The notes below the pieces were generated by a model. The model saw only the letters and a program-made list of their open reading frames with translations. It did no database searches and was not told the origin of the DNA. Below, one piece after another: positions 6,504 to 30,162 of a stretch of DNA of 33,680 bases. The translations under genes and the position numbers were made by a program. Source of the DNA: Armatimonadia bacterium (GTDB lineage Bacteria > Armatimonadota > Zipacnadia > Zipacnadales > UBA11051); the NCBI GenBank assembly GCA_039683575.1, contig JBDKRC010000264.1, forward strand, positions 1-33,680, in the 5' to 3' direction. The stretch's first letter is position 1, and each line of letters starts with the position of its first letter.

Positions 6504-7679
6504 ATGGTTATGATGCGATTGAGCCCTCGTGCCGCAATTCTCACCGCCCTGCTGCTGCTCTGCTTCTGCGGCGCAGTCTGCGCCGACAGCGAGCTGACCC
6601 TGTACAACGGCAGCCTCGAGAAGGTTAAGCTCACCCCCTGGGGCGCAGGCAAGATCAAGCAGGACAAGACCGAGAAGTTCTTCGAGAAGGACAGCGTCCG
6701 TATTGACACCAAGGGCTTCCACGAGGGTGGCGCGCTTGAGCTCAAGACCGCCACCGAACTCGCCCCCTTCATGCAGAATCAGAAGGGCTCCTACGTGGTG
6801 CTGATGGTAAAGCCCCACGAGCCGCCCGTCGCTCAGCCGGTGCAGCCCGGAATGCCCGGGATGGAGCCTGGAATGCCCGGGATGCCGGGTATGGAGCCCG
6901 GGATGCCAGGCGCACCTGGAATGCCCGGCCAGCCTGGAATGCCCGGCGCTGGCATGCCCGGAATGCCTGGCCAACCCGGTATGCCCGGTGCCGGTATGCC
7001 CGGAATGCCTGGGCAACCCGGTATGCCGGGTGCCGGCATGCCTGGGATGCCCGGCCAACCTGGAATGCCCGGGATGGAACCAGGGATGATGCCCGGTATG
7101 CCCGGCGCTCCCGGCATGCCCGGAATGCCGGGAATGGAGGGTGGGATGGGTGCCGCACAGCAGGAAGCCCCGCCCATCATCAGCAAGATCCGCGTCGTCC
7201 TCGTCACCGATAAGGGACAGGTCTCGTCGCCGTTGGTACCGATTGACGTGACCCAGGAGATCGGCGATGGTTGGTATCGCATGGCCATTCCGTTTGCCAG
7301 GTTCGCCGGCCCCGGCGCTCAGCCCGACGCCCTTCTCAAGCGCGTAGCAGTCTTCGGCGACATTGAAGACTACTTCTGGGTAGGCCGCTTGCAGCTCGTC
7401 TCCGAGGACGCGCCCTTGAAGGCCGACGCTGGCGAGAAGCGCACCGTGAAGGCCAAGCAGGAAGTCACCTTCACCGCCGCCGATCAGGACAATGGCGCCC
7501 CGGCGCGCTATCTCTGGGACTTCGACGACTGGGACGGCATCACCGAGGACATGAGTGGTCGCACCGTCAACTGGAAGTTCATGGAGCCGGGCTTCTACAC
7601 CGTCACACTGACGGTCACCGATCCCGGCAACACGAAGGTCCCGCAGGTGGCCCATGTGGATGTGCTGGTGACCAAGTAG
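6504..7679 (+). CDS. Secreted protein with Pro-Gly-Met repeat insert and C-terminal PKD domain
   Basis: N-terminal signal peptide; about 100 aa of PGM repeats; C-terminal ADAG...YLWDFDD...[12 protein letters not shown]. Confidence 0.85.
6846..7151 (+). repeat. Coding tandem repeat (PGM)n with 3 x [14 protein letters not shown]
   Basis: Visible in translation; DNA copies differ at synonymous positions. Confidence 0.95.
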
Positions 7680-15527: not shown

Positions 15528-15581
15528 ACCTCTGTCTTCCGCAAATCAGGCATCCTGTCGTCTGCAAATAACCCAATACGC

Positions 15582-15721
15582 GTAGTGCGGGCGTCTCGCC
15601 CGCCTCCGCTTTAGTCGGCTGTAGGGCGGGGGCTCCGTACCCCGCCGGCCGTTATCTACGACCAAGCCCGGAGCGGCGGGGTACGAGCTGCGATGAAGAC
15701 ATCGCCAAGCCCCGCCCTACA
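15582..15721. repeat. REP singlet plus inverted REP doublet (REPIN-like)
   Basis: GTAGT-GCGGGCG-tct-CGCCCGC (15582-15603); TGTAGGGCGGGG...TACCCCGCC (15620-15646) with inverted partner 15675-15721. Confidence 0.85.
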
Positions 15722-15738
15722 GCCGGCCACTCCTCCCA

Positions 15739-15775
15739 CAAAGAAAACGGCCGCTCCACAAGGGAGCGGCCGTTT
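15739..15775 (-). terminator. Intrinsic terminator of tRNA-Leu
   Basis: 13-bp stem AAACGGCCGCTCC/GGAGCGGCCGTTT running into TTTTCTTT on the minus strand. Confidence 0.85.
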
Positions 15776-15785
15776 GAACTACTAC

Positions 15786-15871
15786 TGGTGCCCAAGGCCG
15801 GACTTGAACCGGCACGAGCAATGCTCACAGCCTCCTGAGGACTGCGTGTCTACCAATTCCACCACTTGGGC
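15786..15871 (-). tRNA. tRNA-Leu (CAG)
   Basis: GCCCAAG/CTTGGGC acceptor stem, anticodon loop CT-CAG-GA, long variable arm, GGTTCAAGTCC T-arm, encoded CCA. Confidence 0.98.
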
Positions 15872-15883
15872 GCAACAGGGTCT

Positions 15884-15912
15884 ATTTTACCGAATTTCAG
15901 ACCTCTTGTCAA
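15884..15912 (-). promoter_or_regulatory. Sigma70 promoter of tRNA-Leu
   Basis: TTGACA-N17-TAAAAT. Confidence 0.9.
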
Positions 15913-15930
15913 ACGATTCGGAGGAGTCTT

Positions 15931-17304
15931 CTACTGCTGAACCTTCTGCCCGCACTTGCCGCAGAACTTGGCTCCGGCCTTCAGCGAGGCCTTACACTTT
16001 GCGCACGTGAGCGCGACAGCCTCAAGGCCTGCGCCGCACTCGCCGCAGAACTTGTCATCCCCGGTAACCTTGGCCCCACACTGCGGGCACTTGGCCGGAA
16101 GAGCCGCCATGACGGCCTTTGCGGACGCCGCAATCGCCTTCCGAGTTGCTCGCCCGGCAGCGGACTTATCAAAAGACGCCCCGCCGAACACCATCCCGAC
16201 ATACCCGCCGCCCAACACGGCCTCGGTGGCGTCCGCGCGTGCCTCACAAGTGGACAGGACCACTCCGGTCTTCAGGTCCACGATCTTGATCAGGATGTTC
16301 ACAATCGCCTGCTCGCTGCCGAGCCCCACGCCGAGTCCTCGCACGCCAAGCAGCCCGCCCCGAGTCTTGGTGGTGAACTCGGTGATTCGCCCAAATACGC
16401 CGTAATCGGCCTTCGCCAGCGTCCCCAGTTCCTCCGCCTTGCCCTCGCTGTCGAACAACCCGCTCTGCTGCAGCCCCTGCTGGTTGATGACCTGGCCCAG
16501 ATTGGCCCGGTCCACTATCTCATAGCTGGAAATCTTCATAAGTTCGTTAGCGATCAGGTCCGGGATCTGCATCCCCAGATTCCAGTCAGCCATGGCCCAT
16601 TGCGACTTGTCTTCAAACGGCATGACCGCGATCCGCGTCTTGCCACTCGACGCATTTGCCATGGCCGTCAGCGCCTCATTGGTCGTCGGCCCCCCCAGGG
16701 TGTTGCCAACCTTCGGCACCAGGTACTTCGCCGCAATGTCGGCAGCCTTCCGGCTGGCGATCAGCGAAGCCGCGTCGCCGCTGATGTCCGCGCCCGATCC
16801 CGTAGCGTCCGTAGCGCCAATGATCAGCGCGTCGCCCTTGGTGGTCACCGCGCGCAGCGTCAGAATCGTCCTCACGCTGGTGGTATTGTTGACCGTGCCA
16901 GCGATCTCGCTCGTTGCCTTCCCTACGATCAGCACGTCCGCCCCGACATTGGCCGTCAGGCTCCGCGCCGCCGGCCCCGTGGGGTCCTTCAGCACCTGCT
17001 CCATCTCCGGCGTATACCGCTGCGAGGCATACTGATTCTGATCTACTACCTTGTAGTTGGCATCGACAAACTGCTTGATAAGCTGGGTCTCCACCGACGG
17101 CAGGCCCGCCGAATAGCCCTCGATGATCCATGTCGCCTGCGACAGGTAATCGCGCTCTAACAGTGCAAACGTGCCCTTGTGGAACTCCGGCACCACGATC
17201 ATGATCTTGGCCTCGGGGAACTTAGGCATACCCGCATCTTGCGCCAATACTGGCATAGAGACCATCAGCAGCAGGCAGACGAGCACGAGCGACTTGTTCT
17301 TCAT
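15931..17304 (-). CDS. Secreted protein with CsgG/HfaB-like domains and C-terminal double zinc ribbon
   Basis: Signal peptide; RIAVMPFED...IVDRANLGQVINQQGL...ADYGVFGRITEF; four CxxC pairs (CPQC, FCGEC, CAKC, FCGKC). Confidence 0.8.
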   Translation of the reverse strand: MKNKSLVLVCLLLMVSMPVLAQDAGMPKFPEAKIMIVVPEFHKGTFALLERDYLSQATWIIEGYSAGLPSVETQLIKQFVDANYKVVDQNQYASQRYTPEMEQVLKDPTGPAARSLTANVGADVLIVGKATSEIAGTVNNTTSVRTILTLRAVTTKGDALIIGATDATGSGADISGDAASLIASRKAADIAAKYLVPKVGNTLGGPTTNEALTAMANASSGKTRIAVMPFEDKSQWAMADWNLGMQIPDLIANELMKISSYEIVDRANLGQVINQQGLQQSGLFDSEGKAEELGTLAKADYGVFGRITEFTTKTRGGLLGVRGLGVGLGSEQAIVNILIKIVDLKTGVVLSTCEARADATEAVLGGGYVGMVFGGASFDKSAAGRATRKAIAASAKAVMAALPAKCPQCGAKVTGDDKFCGECGAGLEAVALTCAKCKASLKAGAKFCGKCGQKVQQ

Positions 17305-17341
17305 TCATTCACTTCCTTCACAGAAGACTTAGCATATGCCA

Positions 17342-17369
17342 ATTCCGCGTCCTGAGCTCTCTTTCCTCC
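17342..17369 (-). promoter_or_regulatory. Sigma-H-like promoter motif
   Basis: GGAGGA-N17-GGAAT upstream of ATG 17304. Confidence 0.55.
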
Positions 17370-17436
17370 ACTATGCCAAGGTACGTTATGCATCATGGGC
17401 GAAGTTCATTCCATTACCAGAGCCTTGGAGGCCGAT

Positions 17437-18537
17437 ATGACTGGCCGCGACCGCGCCCTCGCCGCCCTGCGCTTCGAAGATACCGACCGCGTGCCGATGC
17501 TGGGCGGCTTCATCGCCCACGCTCAGGCCCTCCGGCAGCTCTCGGGCCTCGACCCCTACGCCGATCCGCGCGCCGCCGCCATTGCCGCCGCCAAAGCCCT
17601 CGATGTGGACCTCATCATCCAGGTCGTTGGCCCCAAGACGGCCGACATGAGCACCGAGATGGGGGAGGGGCGCGAGAGCCTCTTCACCCAGCGCGAGCGC
17701 CCGCCCTTTGACAGTCCCGAACAGGTCCGCGACCACGTCGCCGCCCTGCCCTCGCCCGCCGAAGTCCACGCCGCGTTCGACTACGACGCCTACTACGCCG
17801 AGATCCTCGCCGACTGGCGCCAATGCCAGGCCGATGGGGGAGAGGACGTCCTGATCCTCCCGTACGCCAAAGCCCGCGACTGCGGCTTCATGTTCTACTC
17901 CAGCTTCGGCTACGAAAACTACTACCAGGCCCTCGCGCTCTACCCCGAGGTCATGGAGAAGCTCTTCGCCCACAGCGCCGAGGATGCGCGCTGCCGCAAC
18001 GAAACCTTCGTCCGCGTAGTCAACGACACCGACCTGCCCCCCTTCGTCTACATCGGCCAGGATATCTGTGACAACTCCGGCCCCATGATCAGCCCCCGGC
18101 TGCTCGACGAGATCTACTTCCCCAACCTCGCCCACGCCCTCGAGCCCCTCAACGCCGCCGGCATCAAGAAGATCTGGCATTCCGACGGCAACATCAACCC
18201 GATCATTGACCGCCTGCTCGAATGCGGCATCAACGGCTTCCAGGGCCTGCAAGAGGACAGCTACCTCCCCGACCACCAGAAAGTCCATCTCGAAGCCCTC
18301 GCCAGCCGCGAAGACCGCTGGGGCCAGCCGCTAATCCTCTACGGCAGCCTCTCCGTCCGCGACGTCCTCCCCCACGGCACAGTAGCCGACGTCCGCCGCG
18401 AGGTGGAGCGCTGCATAGACGCCTGCCGCCACCGCAGCGGCTTTTTCCTGGCGCCCACAAGCACCGTAGGCCCCGACGTGCCTATCGGGAATATCATTGC
18501 GATGTATGAGTGGGGGAAGGAGTATGGGAGAAGGTAG
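17437..18537 (+). CDS. Uroporphyrinogen decarboxylase-like (URO-D/MtaA-CmuA) family protein
   Basis: RDRALAALRFEDTDRVP, GPMISP, WHSDGNI, GTVADVRREV; GGAGG RBS. Confidence 0.85.
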   Translation: MTGRDRALAALRFEDTDRVPMLGGFIAHAQALRQLSGLDPYADPRAAAIAAAKALDVDLIIQVVGPKTADMSTEMGEGRESLFTQRERPPFDSPEQVRDHVAALPSPAEVHAAFDYDAYYAEILADWRQCQADGGEDVLILPYAKARDCGFMFYSSFGYENYYQALALYPEVMEKLFAHSAEDARCRNETFVRVVNDTDLPPFVYIGQDICDNSGPMISPRLLDEIYFPNLAHALEPLNAAGIKKIWHSDGNINPIIDRLLECGINGFQGLQEDSYLPDHQKVHLEALASREDRWGQPLILYGSLSVRDVLPHGTVADVRREVERCIDACRHRSGFFLAPTSTVGPDVPIGNIIAMYEWGKEYGRR

Positions 18538-18562
18538 TCCTGAAGACTGTAGCACAAGCAAT

Positions 18563-18597
18563 ATGCGGCGGATGTGAGAGCGTCACATCCGCCGCAT
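18563..18597. terminator. Perfect 15-bp hairpin between convergent genes
   Basis: ATGCGGCGGATGTGA-gagcg-TCACATCCGCCGCAT; no clear U tract. Confidence 0.55.
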
Positions 18598-18620
18598 GTT
18601 AGCAACCAAACAGATCAGGG

Positions 18621-19256
18621 CTACTCCGCCTTAGCCGCCCACACCAGCCCCCGCACCACCATAGTCAGCACCGGCTCCATCGCCAGCACGTCCGCGCTGT
18701 GCCCCAGCGAGCAGTAGAACACCCGCCCCTGCCCGTACATCTTCTTCCACACCACCGGCATCTCCACGTCGCCATAATCTGCGAACCGCGTCGTCGCCAG
18801 CACCGTGTTGATCGGGTCCACGTGCATGTAGTACTGCTCCGAGGTCACGTCAAAGGCCGCGATCCCCGCCGTAATCGGGTCCGGCGTCGGCCCGATGTCC
18901 ACGCGGTAGGGCCGGATGCCGCCGGGATGCGCGACCCACTGTCCGCCGCACATGAACTGGTACTCGGTCTGCTCGCGAAAAGCATCACACATCCCGCCAT
19001 GTATCCCGCCAAAGCCCACGCCCGACCGCACGGCGTTCAAAAGCGGGGTCAGTTGCTCACTCGAGATAGTCCCCATGGTCCAGTTGTTAACGATGAGATC
19101 AAGCCCCTTGAGCTTCTCCTCATCGAGGTAGGCATCCAGCGTAGTCGCGACCTCGACCTCAAACCCCTCCCCCTGCAGCCCCTCAGCCATGATCTCAGCC
19201 GTCTGCCGCGGCTCATGCCCATCCCATCCGCCCCAGACGATCAGTGCTTTCTTCAT
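18621..19256 (-). CDS. ThuA-like domain protein
   Basis: KKALIVWGGWDGHEP, GGQWVAHPG, SEQYYMHVDP, GRVFYCSLGH. Confidence 0.9.
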   Translation of the reverse strand: MKKALIVWGGWDGHEPRQTAEIMAEGLQGEGFEVEVATTLDAYLDEEKLKGLDLIVNNWTMGTISSEQLTPLLNAVRSGVGFGGIHGGMCDAFREQTEYQFMCGGQWVAHPGGIRPYRVDIGPTPDPITAGIAAFDVTSEQYYMHVDPINTVLATTRFADYGDVEMPVVWKKMYGQGRVFYCSLGHSADVLAMEPVLTMVVRGLVWAAKAE

Positions 19257-19298
19257 AGTATATCACTCCATCCACGGCGTGATTTTCTGTATTCACTC

Positions 19299-19326
19299 AT
19301 TCGGCGACGTCACAGAGCCCACCTGC
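19299..19326 (-). promoter_or_regulatory. Sigma-H-like promoter motif
   Basis: GCAGGT-N17-CGAAT upstream of the ThuA-like gene. Confidence 0.65.
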
Positions 19327-19329
19327 ACC

Positions 19330-21492
19330 TCACTTCACCACCCGAAACAGATCATGGTACTCATCCGTCCAAAGCAGCGGCTTGCGCTCGTTCACCCTCA
19401 GCGTCGTCCGCTCCCGTATCTTCGGCTGCGCCAGCGCCCGCGCCCCTGGGCTCAGCAGTATCCAATCCGACCCGAACGCCCCTTCTTCCTCGCCCGGATC
19501 ATCGATGAATGCCCCGTCTAGCCCGTACGCGTCCGCCAGCGCCCACACCACCGGCTTGAGGTCCAGCACCCGGTTCGATACGTGCACCGCGATGATCCCG
19601 TCCGGCTGCCGCAGGTGTGCCAGATACAGCGCCATCGCTTCCTTCGTCAGCAGGTGTGCCGGAATCGAGTCGCTGCTGAACGCATCCAGCACGATCACGT
19701 CGAACTGCTGCCGCTCCCCGCGCTTCAGTTCCTGCTCCAGCGACAGGCGCGCGTCCCCGAGCACCACTTCCACCTCCGCCAGGCTGTCCGCCAGATACGT
19801 AAAGTAACGCTCATCCCGCGCGATCTTCTCCACCACCGGGTTGATCTCATAGAACCGATACACATCCCCCGGCTGCCCGTACGCCGCCACCGTCCCCGTT
19901 CCCAGCCCCACTGCCGCCACCCGCATCCTGCCCAGGTCACCGTCCGCAAACCGGGCCAGGCTGTACCGCAGCGCGAGCCCCACCCCCGACGTCTCACTAT
20001 AGTAACTCGTAGGCCTCCGCCGCTTGTCCGGCGCCAGGTACTGCAGCCCGTGCGTAGTGTTGCCATGCACCAGCGAATGCCGCTCGTCCCCCTGGTCATC
20101 GGCTTCCACATAGTCCACCCGCAAGACCCCATAGAAGTTCCGCACCGCCAGCATCGTCTCGCGGTCGTTCGTCTGCGCCTTATTGAACGCCAGCACCCCG
20201 AACACCAGGCTCATCAGCAGCAACACGAGCGCCCCGTACCGCGCCCATGGTAGGAGCGCTCCCCCTGCGACCGCCGACGGTCGCCGCGCGACCGGGTGCC
20301 GACCAGCGGCCGCCATGGTGGGTCTCGGCCAGTTCCACTGCGTCACGAGCCCCGCCCCCCAGCACAGCCCCAGCGACACATGCAGCTCATAGAACCGCTT
20401 GAACAAGAGCGGCGCCAGCAGGGCCACGAACACGCCCCCGAGCGCCCCGCCCAGCGATATTGCCAGGTAGAAAGCCGTCAGATGCCGCGCCACCGGCCGC
20501 CGGTGCACAACCTCGCCGTGGCAGAACATGCAGCACACGAACAGCGCCGCCGCGTAGATCCCGATCTGCAGCTTCGTCTCGACCTCGCCCTGCCGCAGCA
20601 TCACAATCGCCGTCATCGGCACCGCGATCAGCAGCAGCGGCAGATAAGCCTCCCGCGCATACCAGCGCATATCATCGAACGTCAGTATGAACGACAGCAG
20701 GTACAAGCTAAGGGGAACAATCCAGAGGAACGGAATGACCGCGACTTCCTGGCAGATCTGATTCGTCACCGCGAGCAGCAGCGCCGAGGCGATTGCCGGC
20801 AACACCACCCAGGGCACCCACTGTCTCCACCCCGGCGGAGCCGCCAGAGCCTCCGGCAGCCCCTCCTCATTCCCCCCAACCGACTCCACCCTCGCCGCCC
20901 GTTGTCCGAGCGCCACCACCGCCGCCACAAACGCCGCATACCCCACGCCCCACGCCCACCCCTGCGTCCGCAACCGCAGCCACGGCTCAACCGCGAAGGG
21001 ATAGCTCAAGAGCGCGAGCAGCGATCCCACATTGGATACTGTATACAATCGGTACGGCGACACCCCCGGCCGCATCCGCGCAAACCACGCCTGCAAGAGC
21101 GGGCTCGTCGTCGCCAGCACAAAGTACGGCAGCCCCACAGCCACCGTCAAAAGCGCCAGGATCTGCGCCACGGGCCGCTCCGGCGTCTGCGGCTTCCAGC
21201 CCTCATCGGGGATGATCGGCACGCCCCAGCGCCATGCCAGCAGCCCAATCAGCCCTAGCGAGACCACCAGCAGCCCGCCATGAACCAGCCCCTGCCGCCG
21301 CGGCGACAGCCGCATCGCCACCCCATGGGCATACCCATAGCCCGCCAGCAGCAGCACCTGAAAGAACAGCATGCAGGTGGTCCAGACCGCCGGCGTCCCC
21401 CCAAACCAGGGCAGCAGGCACCGCGCAATAATCGGCTGCACCTGAAACAGCAAAAACGCCCCGAGGAAGATGGGAATAGCAAACTGAAGCAT
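19330..21492 (-). CDS. Fused membrane domain / spermidine synthase-like methyltransferase
   Basis: AFLLFQVQP, LLPWFGG..AVWTTCMLFFQ, VGLGTG, YEINP, GDAR, LDAFSSDSIPAHLLT, WTDEY. Confidence 0.9.
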   Translation of the reverse strand: MLQFAIPIFLGAFLLFQVQPIIARCLLPWFGGTPAVWTTCMLFFQVLLLAGYGYAHGVAMRLSPRRQGLVHGGLLVVSLGLIGLLAWRWGVPIIPDEGWKPQTPERPVAQILALLTVAVGLPYFVLATTSPLLQAWFARMRPGVSPYRLYTVSNVGSLLALLSYPFAVEPWLRLRTQGWAWGVGYAAFVAAVVALGQRAARVESVGGNEEGLPEALAAPPGWRQWVPWVVLPAIASALLLAVTNQICQEVAVIPFLWIVPLSLYLLSFILTFDDMRWYAREAYLPLLLIAVPMTAIVMLRQGEVETKLQIGIYAAALFVCCMFCHGEVVHRRPVARHLTAFYLAISLGGALGGVFVALLAPLLFKRFYELHVSLGLCWGAGLVTQWNWPRPTMAAAGRHPVARRPSAVAGGALLPWARYGALVLLLMSLVFGVLAFNKAQTNDRETMLAVRNFYGVLRVDYVEADDQGDERHSLVHGNTTHGLQYLAPDKRRRPTSYYSETSGVGLALRYSLARFADGDLGRMRVAAVGLGTGTVAAYGQPGDVYRFYEINPVVEKIARDERYFTYLADSLAEVEVVLGDARLSLEQELKRGERQQFDVIVLDAFSSDSIPAHLLTKEAMALYLAHLRQPDGIIAVHVSNRVLDLKPVVWALADAYGLDGAFIDDPGEEEGAFGSDWILLSPGARALAQPKIRERTTLRVNERKPLLWTDEYHDLFRVVK
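20250..20293 (+). repeat. Intragenic REP-derived insert
   Basis: GTAGGAGCGCTCCCC...GCGCGACC matches the intergenic REP at 21516-21541. Confidence 0.75.
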
Positions 21493-21515
21493 TAGGAGTA
21501 TCCAACCCGCCTCCG

Positions 21516-21610
21516 GTAGGAGCGCTCCCCTGAGCGCGACCATCACCGACTAACCCTCGCAACCGCACCACAACCCGGCCGCCTGTAGGAGCGGTCACCA
21601 GACCGCGATC
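21516..21610 (+). repeat. Two tandem GTAGGA REPs
   Basis: GTAGGA-GCGCTC-ccct-GAGCGC-GAC and GTAGGA-GCGGTC-acca-GACCGC-GAT. Confidence 0.8.
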
Positions 21611-21651
21611 ATCTACGACCAACCCGCACCTCCCCCAACCTCCAACCTCCC

Positions 21652-22308
21652 TCACCACCCCCGCAGAAACGCCTCCTGGCACCCCTCCAGATGCACCTTC
21701 GGCCGCACCTTCACCACCATCGCCACCGCCTCTTCCCACGTCCCCGCCAGCCCCTTGCGCAAGAGCAACGCCGCCGCTACCGTCGCCGACCGCCCATGCC
21801 CCTGAGCGCAGTGCACGTAAATCCCCTCGCGCCCCGCGAACTCCTCCACGAGCGCCCGCAGCCCATCCGCCTCCGGCGCCCCATAGTTCAGCGTCGGCAG
21901 CGCCCGGTATTCACACCGCGCCAGGGCCGTGCTCGGCTCGGCAAACTCACACGTAACGTCCACAATGACCTTCACACCCTCGGGCAACTCCTCCCCCAGC
22001 ACCCGCCGCCCGACCCACAGCCCCGGCGCCACTTCATTGTAGAGCGGCTCCTTCGAGATCTTCCGCTTGACCTTCCAGATCGCGTACGTGAACCCGAGGT
22101 AGGGGAGAAGCACGACCGCCATCACGGGGTTCAGCGACCCATTCGCCCGCTTCCCAAACAGCGCCGGGCTCCCGCTCCCGTATGCCATCCCCACCACCAG
22201 GCAAGCCACCGCCGGCCAAAGCAGCACCAGTCCCCACCCGCCAACCAGCGCCCCAACGGCCGCCAGCACCACTCCCGCAATCGAATACGTCATCGCATGT
22301 TTGCTCAA
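21652..22308 (-). CDS. Membrane-anchored dual-specificity phosphatase family protein
   Basis: VHCAQGHGRS (CX5R) motif; N-terminal TM segments; TTG start overlaps the comM stop. Confidence 0.85.
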   Translation of the reverse strand: MSKHAMTYSIAGVVLAAVGALVGGWGLVLLWPAVACLVVGMAYGSGSPALFGKRANGSLNPVMAVVLLPYLGFTYAIWKVKRKISKEPLYNEVAPGLWVGRRVLGEELPEGVKVIVDVTCEFAEPSTALARCEYRALPTLNYGAPEADGLRALVEEFAGREGIYVHCAQGHGRSATVAAALLLRKGLAGTWEEAVAMVVKVRPKVHLEGCQEAFLRGW

Positions 22309-23837
22309 GTCCAGAACTTCCTATCCAGGCTTCGATACTGCACTGCCTCCGCCGCGTGATGTACCTGTATCGCCTCCGCGCCTTCCAGGTCCGCAATCGT
22401 CCGCGACAGCTTGATGATCCGGTCATACGCCCGCGCGCTCAGCCCAAACTGGTCTATCGCCGTCCGCAAGAGCGCCTCCACATCATCCCCCAGCGGGCAG
22501 AACTTCCGCAGAGCCTTCGCGTTCATGTCCGAGTTGCAGTGGAACGGCGCCTCCGCAAACCGCCTCCGCTGCAGCTCCCGCGCCTTTATCACCCGCTGCT
22601 GGATCGCCGCCGAGGTCTCCCCCTGCGTCTTCGTCATGACCTCTTCCGGCATGAGCCGCGGAACCTCAATGTGAATGTCAATCCGGTCCTGCAACGGCCC
22701 GCTGATGCGCTTGAGATACCGCCCCGTCTGCCCGGCATTGCACGTGCACTGCCGCACCGGGTCCGTTTTGTAACCGCACGGGCACGGGTTCATCGCCGCC
22801 ACCATCTGGAAGTTCGCCGGAAACGAGGGCGTCCCCTGAACCCGCACAATGGTCACATTCCCATCTTCCAGCGGCTGCCGCAGCACCTCCAGTGACTGCC
22901 CTGAAAACTCCGGCAGCTCATCCAGAAACAGCACCCCGTTGTGCGCCAGGCTCACTTCACCCGGATGCGGAATGCTCCCGCCGCCCACCAGCCCCGCCGT
23001 GCTCACCGTATGGTGCGGCGACCGGAACGGCCGCTGCCGGATCAGCGAACTCTTCTCCGCCATCAGCCCCGACACGCTATAGAGCTTAGTAACCTCCAGC
23101 GCCTCGGAGAGGTCCATCGGCGGCAGAATCCCCGGCATCCGCCGCGCCAGCATCGTCTTGCCCGACCCCGGCGGCCCGATCATCAGCACATTGTGCCCGC
23201 CCGCCGCCGCCACCTCCAGCGCCCGCTTCACATGCTCCTGGCCCTTCACATCCGCAAAGTCCACCGCATAGGCCCCCGCCGTCAGGTCCAGATCCTCCGG
23301 GGGCACCTGCACCGGCTCGGCCATGAACCCCTGCTCCAGCAGACACACACAATCATAGAGCGTTTCCGCCCCATACACCTCAAAATCGTTCACCACCGCC
23401 GCCTCCGGCCCATTCCCCGCCGGGACGATCACATTCGTCTTCCCCCACGACTTCGCACCCAGCGCAATCGGCAGCGCCCCCGTAATCGGCCGCACCGCCC
23501 CATCCAGTGACAGTTCCCCGGCTACCACGGTCTGGTCCAGATCATCCACCGCAATCTGCCCGCTGGCCAGCAGCAGCCCCAGCGCAATGGGCAGATCAAA
23601 CGCCGGCCCCTCCTTGCGCACATCAGCGGGCGCGAGGTTGATGGTCACGCGTTCGAGGGGGAATTCAAAGCCGCTGTTCCGAATAGCCGCCGCAGTACGC
23701 TCGCGGCTCTCACGAATGGCAGTATCCGGCAGTCCAACGATGGTGAAAACATGCGACCCGCGAGTAATGTCAACCTCAACCAGCACTTCGTAAGCATCAA
23801 CACCAAAAATCGCAGCCGAGTGAACCCTGGCAAGCAT
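22305..23837 (-). CDS. comM: YifB/ComM Mg-chelatase-like AAA+ ATPase
   Basis: VGLPDTAIRESRER, NLAPADVRKEG..FDLPIA, GPPGSGKTMLA, LAHNGVLFLDELPEF, AMNPCPCG. Confidence 0.95.
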   Translation of the reverse strand: MLARVHSAAIFGVDAYEVLVEVDITRGSHVFTIVGLPDTAIRESRERTAAAIRNSGFEFPLERVTINLAPADVRKEGPAFDLPIALGLLLASGQIAVDDLDQTVVAGELSLDGAVRPITGALPIALGAKSWGKTNVIVPAGNGPEAAVVNDFEVYGAETLYDCVCLLEQGFMAEPVQVPPEDLDLTAGAYAVDFADVKGQEHVKRALEVAAAGGHNVLMIGPPGSGKTMLARRMPGILPPMDLSEALEVTKLYSVSGLMAEKSSLIRQRPFRSPHHTVSTAGLVGGGSIPHPGEVSLAHNGVLFLDELPEFSGQSLEVLRQPLEDGNVTIVRVQGTPSFPANFQMVAAMNPCPCGYKTDPVRQCTCNAGQTGRYLKRISGPLQDRIDIHIEVPRLMPEEVMTKTQGETSAAIQQRVIKARELQRRRFAEAPFHCNSDMNAKALRKFCPLGDDVEALLRTAIDQFGLSARAYDRIIKLSRTIADLEGAEAIQVHHAAEAVQYRSLDRKFWT

Positions 23838-23897
23838 GAAAAAACCAATCCCCCGTGGGCGATGATGGTCATCATCGCAGGTGATGGGGGATTGGTT
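23838..23897 (-). terminator. Terminator-like hairpin abutting the comM start codon
   Basis: 12-bp stem AACCAATCCCCC/GGGGGATTGGTT followed by TTTTC-ATG on the minus strand. Confidence 0.6.
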
Positions 23898-23922
23898 CGT
23901 TGCTCGTCCAGTTTGTACCTGC
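23895..23922 (-). promoter_or_regulatory. Sigma-H-like promoter motif for comM
   Basis: GCAGGT-N17-CGAAC. Confidence 0.65.
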
Positions 23923-23971
23923 GCATTTTCAGAACGAATGGGGAGAGGCGGCTGAACCGCTGGTGTCCCTT

Positions 23972-23996
23972 GTGGGAGGGCTCTCCAGAGCCCGAC
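23972..23996 (+). repeat. REP (GTGG variant)
   Basis: GTGGGA-GGGCTC-tcca-GAGCCC-GAC. Confidence 0.7.
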
Positions 23997-23998
23997 GG

Positions 23999-25867
23999 TC
24001 ACTTCCCCTCAAACACAAAATCCGGCCGTACCACCACCCAAGCCGGCAGCTTCGGGTCGAACACCACCTGCAGGCTCCGGAACCCCTTCCCCTCGATCTT
24101 CCCGACCTTCAGCGACCACAGCCGCCCATCTTTGCCCTTCGTCGCCACCTTCAGCTTCGCATTCCGCACATACTGGTCGGTCGGCTGGTCCACGACCACC
24201 TGCCCGTCCGGGTCCAGCACGGTCACCTGCACCTGCGTCGTCCCCCAGTTGCACAGCGCGTCAATCGTGAACTCTTCCATCCCCTTGGGCACCTGGAAGT
24301 ACAGCGTCCCGCCCGGCCCCGCCACTTCAAACGCCGGGTACGAACTCCACGTCCAGTTCGCGTACGGCACCGTCGTGCTCACGACCTCACACCGCCCGTA
24401 ATACCCCGGCGTCACCACAACGCAATGCAGCCCTGCCTGCGCCGCTTTGAACTTCAGCGTAAACGGCTCCCCCGGCACCATCTTCCCACTCGCCAGCTCC
24501 TTCTTCGCCGGGTCCAGCACCGCATAGGTCACGCCCCACACGTCCCCCGACTGCGCCTTGTTGACCTTGAACTCCACCACCGGCTCCTCGCCGGCCTTCA
24601 GGTCCATCATCATGTAACTCGTCGCAATCAGCCCCAGCGACGGTACAGCCAGCGGCTTTCCTCGCTCCAAAGCGCTCCCATCCACCACTTCCGGCGCCTT
24701 GAACCGCTCCACATCGAACCCCGGATGCCGGTACCGCACCGGCTCCTCCACAAACTGCAGCGGCGTCACATACCCTTTATCTTGCCCCAGCTTATCGAGC
24801 TCCACATCTGCCAGCTTGATGGCGTTCAGGTACTCTTCCGGCGTCCCCGCGCACAAGTGATAGTCCCCCTTCTGCTCCTTCTCGGGGATGCAGAGCGTAT
24901 GCACCGTGAAGATCCAATACCCGTCTGTCTTCCGCGCCACCTCATACAGGTTCTTGGCCAGATTCGCCGCCGTGTACTGCCTGAGCAGCACTCCGGCGCT
25001 GTAGTAGCAGTGTATCTCCTTGTCCAAAAGCTCCTGCTTCCAGTTGTCGGCGATCTTGTTCGGCCCGCCGCCCCCATACGTGCTCGTGGCCCACAGAATC
25101 ATCGGATGCTCCGCCGTCCCGAGCCCCTGCGCCACGCCCACCAGGTGCCAGTTGTGCGGCACGGGATAGAACCCCACAAAAAACTCCGGATCAACCGCCG
25201 CAATCGCCTTCCGCATCCCCTCGGCATACTCCCGCACCTGCTTCTGCAAATACGGCTGATACTGCTCCGCCAGCTTATGCTCCTTCAGCCATGCCACGCG
25301 CTCCTTGAACCCCACCTGCCCCGTCACATCCGCCTGCCCCTGCGCCTTCAGAAACCCGCTGAAGCAGTGGTCGCAGTAGCACGCGTCCGTATAGTAGATC
25401 TGCCCGCCCTTGTTGGAGTTGGCGTACATCTCCCAGTCGATCAGAATCCCCGATATCTCCTCATCCGCCAACTGCCCCTCGCGCGCCAGTTCCACGGCGC
25501 GCTGTATCAGCACCTCATCCCAGTACCGCTTCTCCACCGGACAGGGCAGCACGCTCTCATACCCATTCCCAAACACGCACCGCCGCATGCCGGCCTTCTC
25601 ACCGTCACAAGAGGCCGATACCACACCAAACAGCCGCATCCCGGCCTTCTTGGCTTCCTTGGCCCAGAGCGTGAACGTCTCCGGCGTCCCGGCGCTGGTA
25701 ATCAGCGTGTTCATGCCATACTGCTTGAAGAACCCCAGCTTGTCCGCTCCATCCCCATAGTAGATCCACCCGGCCCGTATTTTCTCCCGCGAAATCCAAT
25801 CCTCCGCCGCCCGAGCCCCACTGGCCCCGATCAAAAGGATACCAACAAGCAGCAGTACCTGACGCAT
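23999..25867 (-). CDS. Secreted hypothetical protein, possible glycoside-hydrolase-like TIM barrel plus beta-sandwich domains
   Basis: Signal peptide; GILIDWEMY, CYCDHC; beta-rich C-terminal half; fold assignment is inference. Confidence 0.6.
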   Translation of the reverse strand: MRQVLLLVGILLIGASGARAAEDWISREKIRAGWIYYGDGADKLGFFKQYGMNTLITSAGTPETFTLWAKEAKKAGMRLFGVVSASCDGEKAGMRRCVFGNGYESVLPCPVEKRYWDEVLIQRAVELAREGQLADEEISGILIDWEMYANSNKGGQIYYTDACYCDHCFSGFLKAQGQADVTGQVGFKERVAWLKEHKLAEQYQPYLQKQVREYAEGMRKAIAAVDPEFFVGFYPVPHNWHLVGVAQGLGTAEHPMILWATSTYGGGGPNKIADNWKQELLDKEIHCYYSAGVLLRQYTAANLAKNLYEVARKTDGYWIFTVHTLCIPEKEQKGDYHLCAGTPEEYLNAIKLADVELDKLGQDKGYVTPLQFVEEPVRYRHPGFDVERFKAPEVVDGSALERGKPLAVPSLGLIATSYMMMDLKAGEEPVVEFKVNKAQSGDVWGVTYAVLDPAKKELASGKMVPGEPFTLKFKAAQAGLHCVVVTPGYYGRCEVVSTTVPYANWTWSSYPAFEVAGPGGTLYFQVPKGMEEFTIDALCNWGTTQVQVTVLDPDGQVVVDQPTDQYVRNAKLKVATKGKDGRLWSLKVGKIEGKGFRSLQVVFDPKLPAWVVVRPDFVFEGK

Positions 25868-25904
25868 AGCATCTTCCTTTCCGACTCCGCGCGCGTTTCC
25901 GTCT

Positions 25905-25949
25905 GTAGGGCGAAGCGACGCCTGCGTCGCAGGGGGCTCGTACCCCGCC
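25905..25949 (+). repeat. REP with internal 20-nt hairpin insertion
   Basis: GTAGGGCG[AAGCGACGCCTGCGTCGCAG]GGGGCTCGTACCCCGCC versus the empty form at 15621. Confidence 0.8.
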
Positions 25950-29370: not shown

Positions 29371-30051
29371 ATGCTGACCATCAGGTCGTGTGGTCACTCC
29401 TGCCATCTGCTGACTTCCGAGACGCATTCGATCGTCCTCGATCCCTTCCTGACCGGCAACCCCGAGGCCGCCTGCTCACCTGATGACCTTCAGGTGGACG
29501 CGATTCTGCCCTCCCACGGCCACTCCGACCACCTCGGCGACACCATTGCCATCGCCAACCGTCTCGGCTGCCCGGTCATCGCCGCTTTCGAGCTCTGCAT
29601 GTACTGCGCCCGCTATGGCTGCGAAGTCGCCCCCATGCACGTCGGCGGCAGCCGCAAGTTCGACTTCGGCCGCGTCAAGCTCACCCAGGCCCAGCACGGC
29701 TCCGCGGTCATCGGCGACACCATCGAGTACACCGGCCTCGCCGTCGGCTTCATAGTCGAGATGGGCGGCGTGAGGGTCTACTACGCCGGAGACACCGGCC
29801 TCTTCGGCGACATGAAGCTGATCGGGGAAGAGGGGATAGACGTGGCGATTCTCCCCATCGGCGACTGCTTCACGATGGGCCCCGACGACGCTCTCAAAGC
29901 CGTCCAGATGCTCCGGCCCAAAATGGTGATCCCCACCCACTACAACACCTTCGACCTCATCCACCAGGACGCCCCGGCCTTCGCCGCCCGCCTGCAAGCC
30001 CTCGGCGTAGAGGGCAAAGTCCTCAGACCCGGCGAAGAGGTCTCTCTCTGA
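29371..30051 (+). CDS. Metal-dependent hydrolase, metallo-beta-lactamase fold (UPF0173-like)
   Basis: GHSC, LDPFLTGNP, SHGHSDH, YYAGDTG, LPIGD, IPTHYNTF. Confidence 0.92.
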   Translation: MLTIRSCGHSCHLLTSETHSIVLDPFLTGNPEAACSPDDLQVDAILPSHGHSDHLGDTIAIANRLGCPVIAAFELCMYCARYGCEVAPMHVGGSRKFDFGRVKLTQAQHGSAVIGDTIEYTGLAVGFIVEMGGVRVYYAGDTGLFGDMKLIGEEGIDVAILPIGDCFTMGPDDALKAVQMLRPKMVIPTHYNTFDLIHQDAPAFAARLQALGVEGKVLRPGEEVSL

Positions 30052-30141
30052 CGGAGGGGCCGAGCTTTAGCCGGCCCGGTTTGGCGCCAGCATAGGGTGT
30101 CGCAGATAACTACGTGGGCCGGCTGAAGCTCGGCCCCTCCG
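30052..30141. repeat. Inverted REP doublet (REPIN-like, GGAG type)
   Basis: 26-bp inverted repeat, 25/26 identical: 30052-30077 and 30116-30141. Confidence 0.85.
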
Positions 30142-30162
30142 CCGAAAAGGGAGGTCACACCA

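Follow-up and report, generated by a model that had tools for sequence, protein, structure and literature searches.

The closest described relatives of the element reported here are the repetitive extragenic palindromic sequences (REPs) of the GTAG type, the inverted doublets that they form (REPINs) and the REP-associated tyrosine transposases (RAYTs). Our subject is a hairpin of about 20 nt, designated here the module, which was noticed inside other palindromes in a 33,680-nt stretch of DNA (contig JBDKRC010000264.1, the window in what follows and contig C264 in our numbering) of an Armatimonadia bacterium (assembly GCA_039683575.1). The genome analysed (code G000) is a 6.23-Mb draft in 352 contigs with 63.5% G+C. 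Measured against GTAG REPs, REPINs and RAYT systems as portrayed in the main texts of PMC2817692, PMC3116915, PMC3733652 and PMC8266576, the module is likewise a short, GC-rich, extragenic stem-loop with approximately 100 copies, with compensatory stem variants within the genome and a lineage-specific sequence. Unlike a GTAG REP, it is only 20 nt long with a 6-bp stem, and 106 of its 109 copies lie inside another REP, at a fixed spot. It also differs from a REPIN in being a single hairpin and not an inverted doublet with a spacer, and from REPtrons in that no Y1 gene is flanked by it. The GTAG tag is missing from three of its position classes (C, D and F2-B, described below). With the insertion sequences (IS) of the IS200/IS605 (HUH) type it shares the lack of a target duplication, a short specific target and one orientation relative to that target. 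A miniature transposable element with inverted repeats (MITE) is a poorer comparison, given the size of 20 nt, the lack of a duplication in class B and the lack of related IS ends.

Small nested elements have reportedly been described in Nostocaceae, where the small dispersed repeats (SDR) of Elhai (2008) are said to be approximately 20–30 nt long, to have hairpin potential, to lack target duplications and to be sometimes nested in one another. The module differs from them in phylum and sequence, and the SDR are not known to be tied to GTAG REPs. IS1397 reportedly inserts into palindromic units, and Tobes and Pareja are said to have treated insertion sequences targeting REPs in 2006; such guests are kilobase-sized and encode a transposase, unlike the module, which is 20 nt long and non-coding. 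SDR5 is described, in the main text of PMC5861425, as inserting at HIP1, and REP hairpins as specific insertion targets of insertion sequences in that of PMC3733652. The nearest precedent, as far as the main text of the latter paper goes (Di Nocera 2013), is its remark that some REPs sit within small palindromes (Thermomicrobium roseum GTAG-23, Anabaena GTAG-15 and Halothiobacillus CGTC-1); the T. roseum target palindrome also exists empty, a matter not studied in detail by the authors. In those cases the REP is the guest and a short palindrome the host, whereas the module, as a guest, falls short of the usual REP size, REP families are its hosts, and several hosts and positions obey one site rule. 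The main texts of five papers of the REP literature (PMC3733652, PMC2817692, PMC3686654, PMC3116915 and PMC8266576) yielded no description of a hairpin of approximately 20 nt nested in GTAG REPs, in line with the original prediction, made from the window alone, which knew of no described element of this form.

A discrete family of hairpins nested in REPs

The copies of the module, GC-rich hairpin cassettes approximately 20 nt long, form a family specific to this lineage and nested in REPs. In this genome the consensus is NA-GCGRYG-TCYG-CRYCGC-AG, with a 6-bp stem and a 4-nt loop. The genome is rich in GTAG-type REPs, of which five families were labelled F1 to F5, and the hosts are classical CT-GTAG REPs in inverted doublets. 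Family F1 reads CTGTAGGGCGGGGGCTCGTACCCCGCC, and its head TGTAGGGCG was found 349 times, both strands counted. F2 reads GTAGGTGCGC or GTGGAGCGC, followed by GGGCATCCCTGCCCGC; F3 is CGTAGTGCGGGCGTCTCGCCCGC, F4 is GTAGGAGCGCTCCCCTGAGCGCGAC and F5 is TGTAGGAGCGGTC...GACCGCGA. A Hamming scan with three perfect-hairpin consensus strings, allowing up to two mismatches, returned 109 near-consensus copies on many contigs, all inside GTAG-type REPs apart from one in another repeat family and two without an adjoining REP. Eighty sites were classed automatically (42 B, 15 C, 6 D, 16 F2-B and 1 F3-B) and the other 29 by eye (13 B-like, 11 F2-B-like, one F3 loop, one other REP-like hairpin and three outside REPs). 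This gives 55 copies in F1-B, 15 in F1-C, 6 in F1-D, 27 in F2-B and one each in F3-B, the F3 loop and another REP-like hairpin, besides the three non-REP sites.

The three F1 classes have their own layouts. In class B the module stands as TGTAGGGCG / NA-GCGACG-TCYG-CGTCGC-AG / GGGGCTCGTACCCCGCC, and in class C as TGTAGGGCGGGGCT / TG-GCGATG-TCYG-CATCGC-AG / CTCGTACCCCGCC; class D, with the stem GCGGTG/CACCGC, is on the opposite F1 strand as GGCG / AA-...-AG / GGGTACGAGCCCCCGCCCTACAG. The module is missing from approximately 70% of F1 and 60% of F2 copies, and in F4 we counted 8 filled against 43 empty copies, with the stems GCGGACG/CGTCCGC or, in the window copy, GCGACCG/CGGTCGC.

Filled and empty REPs are two distinct length classes. 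With a strict head and tail, the gap between the two in F1 was 10–11 nt in 192 copies and 30–31 nt in 42, with no more than three copies at any other length; in F2, where all rows of a given length were counted, it was 8–9 nt in 48 copies and 28–30 nt in 11. This two-peaked distribution of F1 gap lengths confirms a discrete module within pre-existing REP hairpins, of which filled and empty forms coexist.

The family far exceeds what base composition would produce. The pattern put forward in the original prediction (CTGCGA-N6-16-TCGC with a self-complementary interior) matched 87 times in the 6.23-Mb genome, against a mean of 15.9 (sd 5.0) in twelve simulated order-2 Markov genomes and 13 in the reversed genome, so that the expected excess over chance was borne out; likewise, GCG-N3-N4-N3'-CGCAG with perfect pairing was observed 97 times against 18.6 (sd 3.6) in simulations. 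The anticipated enrichment in REPs was also found: 73 of the 87 matches lie no more than 45 nt from an independent REP mark, in a zone that makes up 6.1% of the genome (the marks used for this proximity test exclude the module itself). That the four hairpins of the window resemble one another by chance in a GC-rich genome is therefore extremely improbable, and could apply only to the one at position 23858: some 16 pattern matches arise even in simulated genomes, and this singleton could be one of them. For the family, in which 87 matches stand against 15.9 ± 5.0, 73 of these adjoin REP marks and the same 18-mer with GGG recurs 45 times, the chance reading is refuted.

Several small rearrangements of the host itself were also seen. 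The 12-nt F1 head CTGTAGGGCGGG is present in tandem, in nine units on contig C63 (34342–34450) and three units on contig C81 (1060–1095), and several further partial duplications of the head lie directly before complete F1 REPs; the F1 5' arm is a hot spot for small duplications.

Insertion site and stem pairing

Read as GCG...CGC-AG, the module has GCG before it and GGG after it in B, D, F2-B, F3-B and F4. This usual site, GCG^GGG, lies 3–4 nt into the 5' arm of the host stem; the host loop is occupied less often. The full sites are TGTAGGGCG^GGGGCT in class B, GGCG^GGGTACGAG on the opposite strand in class D, GTGCGCG^GGCATCC in F2, GTGCGCG^GGCGTCTC in F3 and GCG^GGGGAGCGC in F4. Because the F1 stem is GGCGGGG/CCCCGCC, the site string can be read on either F1 strand; class B uses one and class D the other. 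The class-C copies and the only F3-loop copy lie in the loop after GGGC(T) and start with TTGG. The module thus occurs in both orientations and in at least three positions of F1, and in three other REP families. At GCG^GGG the gain is exactly 20 nt in five host contexts; either strand may hold the site, the orientation to the target being the same each time. Class B shows no target duplication, and its boundaries are ambiguous by one base (GGGCG^TAG...CAG^GGGG or GGGC^GTAG...GCA^GGGGG); class C is ambiguous, gaining either 21 nt or 20 nt and a CT repeat. An origin of the module by fold-back or local inverted duplication was considered and rejected, as its arms are not copies of adjoining host sequence.

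The commonest module together with the host G reads GTAG-CGACG-TCTG-CGTCG-CA, which is a minimal REP layout. In 28 of the 42 automatically classed B copies the tag is of this form (G|TAG...CA|G, the G being supplied by the host). The remaining B copies have GAAG, GGAG or GCAG, class C has TTGG, and D and F2-B mostly have GAAG.

Single-stranded DNA folds of filled REPs retain the host stem and gain a side hairpin. Across the copies, 621 of 636 stem cells are Watson-Crick paired (97.6%, against 2–20% when the partner is slid), a value that is partly built in, since perfect-hairpin consensus strings were used to collect the copies. Two stem pairs have changed on both sides, from A-T to G-C in 8 copies and from C-G to T-A in 23, so that the inner stems indeed differ and yet remain paired, as had been read from the window. 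The independent evidence for pairing is the existence of three distinct perfect stems. Variation falls mostly in the loop (TCTG, TCCG, CCTG and others) and at the 5' N (T in 28, A in 5, G in 5 and C in 4 of the automatically classed B copies).

Such conservation of pairing could also mean that a host function selects the hairpin into REPs, either as a site for a dimeric protein or as an RNA stem that aids mRNA stabilisation or termination; its abundance would then stem from selection and not from self-propagation. The paired stem with varying unpaired positions, the persistence of the hairpin with compensatory change across three species of the genus and a further hairpin inside a terminator-like stem upstream of comM (see below) would agree with this. 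We nevertheless regard it as unlikely: a sequence-specific protein site would not be expected to vary, as this sequence does, from congener to congener and from one position class to the next, most F1 and F2 copies do without the hairpin, no consistent position relative to genes was seen among the copies, and copying of only foldable substrates gives the same pairing pattern.

Distribution among relatives

The exact module (20-mer) is present 45 times in this genome and a looser pattern 53 times, and neither was found in 40 relatives. Among 185,579 genomes, one per species, ten single matches were obtained in ten unrelated genomes, none of them adjoining a GTAG-type REP; the module does not recur across phyla. 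In an unrelated metagenome-assembled genome (locus L126; JAICQI010000390.1, 2118–2257), the exact 18-letter hairpin lies in an apparent tandem repeat of approximately 60 nt, with a second, partial copy of the hairpin 40 nt upstream; this may be coincidence.

The host is more widespread than the guest. Three congeners (coded G001, G002 and G003) and two members of other families of the same order (G018 and G030) were compared: the F1 head was counted 97 times in G002, 127 in G003, 243 in G018 and 38 in G030, and was absent from G001, which likewise had no match to Y1_Tnp. When F1 with a gap of 10–30 nt, or of 14–30 nt, was searched in 41 and then 79 genomes of the class, hairpin inserts at the B site were found only in the genus. 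As judged from these sequences, the filled state is derived and restricted to the genus, because distant genomes with up to 243 F1 heads have no cassette at the arm site. The earlier proposal that the module entered pre-existing REPs gains support from the same difference, the arm-site cassette being found only in the genus and the F1 head being common more widely.

In the congeners, the B site holds a changed cassette, TA-GAGAYCGC-TY-GCGRTCTC-AG, in 9 of 12 matches in G002 and 2 of 10 in G003. This hairpin can be aligned to the local GCGAC-G...C-GTCGC if one pair is taken to have changed from C:G to A:T and one pair to have been added, and the F4 copy of the window (GCGACCG) is intermediate between the two. 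The string GAGAYCGC-NN-GCGRTCTC occurs at 29 sites in G002 and three in G003, and at none in G001, G018 and G030. Twenty-two of the congener-hairpin sites, at 20 loci, comprise 8 in F1-B, one in an F1-like REP, 10 in another repeat family and 3 elsewhere; that other repeat family flanks a Y1-transposase-like gene on contig C166 of G002, where one arm is filled and others are empty. The hairpin thus exists in a separate version for each species, and lies within several host repeats. In one further F1 copy of G003, TA-GCGGACG-GAA-CGTCCGC-AG occupies the loop.

Two other kinds of insert were noticed in the same REPs. In G003, a 10-nt string, TAGCGCAGCC, lies exactly at the F1 class-B site at eight places (e.g. 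C31:19679–19712) and may be either a collapsed remnant of the cassette or a separate short insert. A different insert of approximately 26 nt (GCCGCAGGCCCTGAGCCTGTCGAAGG) occupies the F1 loop at 16 sites in G018 (e.g. C1:40484–40535) and two in G003 (C292:4456–4508 and C648:1169–1221); the F1 loop therefore hosts other cassettes elsewhere.

Entry and spread

We propose that cassettes were inserted precisely into GTAG-REP hairpins and then amplified with the host, their entry being a reaction of Y1/HUH type on folded single-stranded DNA, and consider the case for this evenly balanced. In such a course of events, a few precise entries into GTAG-type REP hairpins would have occurred without target duplication, mostly at GCG^GGG and otherwise in the loop. 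They would have taken place on folded single-stranded REP DNA, by the cut-and-join chemistry of a Y1/HUH (RAYT-like) enzyme that handles REPs. The filled arms would then have multiplied and been exchanged like any REP, giving sub-families of approximately 55 B, 15 C, 6 D and 27 F2 copies and a few in F3 and F4. Entry of HUH type is favoured by the lack of duplication, the short specific target, the single orientation, the foldable DNA and the minimal-REP layout. What the sequences show is discreteness, the derived state, the rule of site and orientation, covariation and the confinement to REP hosts, while the single-stranded substrate, the enzyme and any current activity are inferences. According to the main text of PMC8266576, RAYTs bind the REP stem-loop with its 5' GTAG, cleave at a CT or a CA to either side of it, with the AG of GTAG as guide, and can transfer strands in vitro. 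A more specific version, in which the 20-nt hairpin is itself the transposition unit, that is, a minimal REP that a RAYT-type enzyme would excise or copy in single-stranded form and join into the GCG^GGG of further folded REPs, is offered tentatively.

The distribution of the module over REP doublets bears on how often it entered. Among 55 strict F1 doublets, 34 are empty, 20 have one arm filled (the left in 9 and the right in 11, with spacers read by eye) and one has both arms filled; classes B and C are each found on both sides. Class B occurs on all three host-loop variants, roughly in the manner of empty REPs (21/6/4 for B, 99/62/27 for empty copies). With three loop variants and both sides filled, a single founder copied as a doublet is insufficient, and repeated entry or exchange of arms is needed.

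The main rival is template switching between stalled REP hairpins. Under this explanation the module has no mobility of its own: an extra stem-loop arose a few times, was passed between REPs, either by template switching during replication or by gene conversion over short patches, with flanking REP homology as the guide or, from family to family, the GCG...GGG microhomology, and spreads only with REP or REPIN amplification. We think this possible, though doubtful, and several observations that weigh against insertion by an enzyme fit it well. The stem is specific to the position class (GCGACG in B, GCGATG in C, GCGGTG in D), so that a small number of entries suffices and the majority of copies may have been carried along with the host; all 15 copies of class C, moreover, are on one host-loop type. 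On contig C259 a rare spacer and a class-D right arm are common to two REPINs, whose left arm is empty in one and class C in the other; since a G and the change between CTCCG and CTCG also set these left arms apart, the pair looks more like a whole-arm swap than a clean insertion. Near-consensus sites outside REPs number only three of 109. In addition, the tandem duplications of the F1 head (nine units of 12 nt on C63) mark the arm as prone to slippage, and in metagenomic relatives the whole F4 region 20206–20325 is replaced, and not the module alone.

Further points weigh against insertion in their own right. The F4 copies are replacements and not clean insertions, no orthologous site was seen at which the module alone is present or absent, and a mini-REP with GTAG describes only some members of the family. 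At the left junction the sequence is GC^G or CG^T, which is neither CT nor CA. Finally, the genome has seven Y1-transposase-like genes (PF01797, Y1_Tnp), on contigs C168, C51, C331, C237, C102, C31 and C338, each flanked by other repeats; none of the seven is flanked by the module or by F1 or F2, so that copies next to RAYT or IS200-like genes, which the original prediction had asked to look for, were not found in this genome.

Template switching, for its part, meets difficulties of its own. To cross from one family to another, the module would need a pair of switches at 3-nt microhomologies, and this anew for each of F2, F3 and F4. Adjoining host sequence is not the source of the module, and fold-back copying would not create it. 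In G003 the same type of cassette, flanked by TA...AG, is found at another position of the same REP, and the G002 hairpin is also present in an unrelated repeat family.

Comparisons that might have separated precise insertion from arm exchange gave limited information. At the orthologous spacers in G002 and G003 other REP families are present, and the flanking gene is only approximately 75% identical. Three REPIN pairs have near-identical spacers and different fill, with spacers too near the family consensus to prove a recent common origin. A search for strain variants through duplicated outer flanks found a repeated flank at 7 of 109 sites, all of them other repeats. Four public metagenome runs (X1–X4) contain 9–33% of the sampled words of the window, and their contigs were aligned to it at a likeness of at least 90% (the longest pieces being approximately 89–98% identical). 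One X1 contig is 21 letters shorter over 15636–17012 and one X4 contig 22 letters shorter over 15618–15919; this shortfall matches the size of the class-C insert and is no more than a hint of an empty class-C site. In X2–X4, 57 other letters stand in place of 20206–20325, a region that takes in the entire filled F4 REP with its surroundings, and none of the X1–X4 contigs spanned 25903–25949 from unique flanks.

Whichever way the cassettes entered, the family looks like one selfish repeat nested in another, a second-order repeat that takes up one set position in several REP families, whichever the strand, with filled and empty forms side by side. It bears on the still unsettled multiplication of REPs, since the RAYT papers, in their main texts, show cleavage and strand transfer in vitro and not how REPs spread in a genome. 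The substrate, the target, the junctions and a homologous, changed cassette in sister species are available for tests with enzymes or strains. The module would lower the size limit of bacterial insertion units. If it is itself a transposition unit, it would be among the smallest mobile DNAs known, REP families would parasitise one another, and the cassette could report the strand-transfer specificity of RAYTs; if only template switching is involved, it would be a clean example of REP hairpins acquiring extra arms.

The copies in the window

The features of the window that concern the module are collected in Table 1. The original prediction had listed four hairpins here as copies of one micro-element, and all four strings are present where it placed them. 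Three belong to the genome-wide family; the fourth, at 23858, has no second copy in the genome, and its kinship is doubtful. What did not hold is the view of the four as independent insertions of one variable element, as those at 15688 and 25913 are ordinary members of large sub-families (15 and approximately 55 copies, respectively), most of whose spread took place along with the host REP. The comparisons with empty relatives fared better. The REP at 25903–25949 equals that at 15619–15647 with exactly 20 nt added after TGTAGGGCG, and the inverted counterpart of the latter at 15675–15721 has 21 extra nt at a different position, in the loop; 15619–15721 is thus an F1 doublet (REPIN) with a plain left arm and a filled right-arm loop. 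The REPs at 20250 and 21516 are a filled and an empty form, as proposed, but not a clean pair: the empty form has TGA in place of the 20-nt hairpin, a net gain of 17–18 nt.

Table 1. Position of the module, its host REPs and adjoining features in the window
Feature	Position	Strand	Remarks
F3 REP	15581..15611	+	CGTAGTGCGGGCGTCTCGCCCGC; empty; REPIN neighbour
F1 REP, empty form	15619..15647	+	CTGTAGGGCGGGGGCTCCGTACCCCGCC; left arm of REPIN doublet
F1 REP, filled form C	15675..15721	-	module in loop; right arm of same REPIN
Nested module	15688..15707	-	TG-GCGATG-TCTT-CATCGC-AG; one of 15 class-C copies; plus-strand letters CTGCGATGAAGACATCGCCA
tRNA-Leu(CAG)	15786..15871	-	landmark adjoining REPIN
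F4 REP, filled form	20250..20292	+	GTAGGAGCGC...GCGCGAC
Nested module	20265..20285	-	G-GCGACCG-TCGG-CGGTCGC-AG; 7-bp stem; at GCG^GGGG on minus strand; plus-strand letters CTGCGACCGCCGACGGTCGCC
F4 REP, empty form	21516..21540	+	GTAGGAGCGCTCCCCTGAGCGCGAC
Terminator-like two-tier hairpin	23843..23897	-	directly upstream of comM ATG; 12-bp GC-rich outer stem, then TTTTTT
Inner hairpin	23858..23880	-	CT-GCGATGATG-AC-CATCATCGC-C; plus-strand letters GGCGATGATGGTCATCATCGCAG; unique in genome
F1 REP, filled form B	25903..25949	+	module in 5' stem arm
Nested module	25913..25932	+	AA-GCGACG-CCTG-CGTCGC-AG; class B; inserted at TGTAGGGCG^GGGGCT; letters AAGCGACGCCTGCGTCGCAG

The fourth hairpin is the inner tier of a structure upstream of comM, a gene supported by Pfam. 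The whole structure folds with -19.3 kcal/mol (z -6.5), and its inner hairpin, read as GCGATGATG-GT-CATCATCGC-AG, has GCGATG...CATCGC-AG in common with class C. A simple terminator scan of 23700–24050 gave no match, the scanner's loop limit of 3–8 excluding a structure of this kind. The X4 contig, approximately 93% identical over 22300–25394, retains the hairpin at 23858, minus 2 nt at 23866. Among Joint Genome Institute (JGI) metagenome contigs searched with comM, the module was found in 0 of 80 loci, and the region upstream of the closest comM relative (81% protein identity) has, by eye, no recognisable counterpart hairpin. The safest description of the hairpin at 23858 is a local terminator-like structure whose kinship to the module is uncertain.

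Other features

Other repeats were noticed alongside the module. At 30041–30152 the window has an inverted doublet of another REP family (GGAGGGGCCGAGCTTTAGCCGGCCC), which also flanks the Y1-transposase-like gene on contig C31. Another dispersed repeat, GTCATYCTGAGGAGCGYCGTCTGCGACGAAGRATCTC, with a core like half of the module, was found on contigs C44, C51, C172, C171 (three times), C38, C317 and C149, in five copies by a strict pattern and in more in the three-mismatch list.

In the window, the tRNA gene was the sole Rfam match. The gene at 15931–17304 has a CsgG-like domain and zinc ribbons (Pfam); it is present in X1, and the X2–X4 contigs have 73 other letters instead (window 15920–17426). 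At 6836–7148 units of 42 nt and related ones are repeated in tandem and in frame (CCNGGNATGCCNGG...), and would encode a low-complexity stretch rich in Pro, Gly and Met. The contig ends, 1–123 and 33556–33680, are two different ends of one multi-copy insertion sequence and have in common a 23-nt terminal inverted repeat, CCCACACTAATTGAGGAAGAGCC. More than 20 other contigs carry these ends approximately 100 nt in from their own termini, and the assembly therefore breaks in this insertion sequence.

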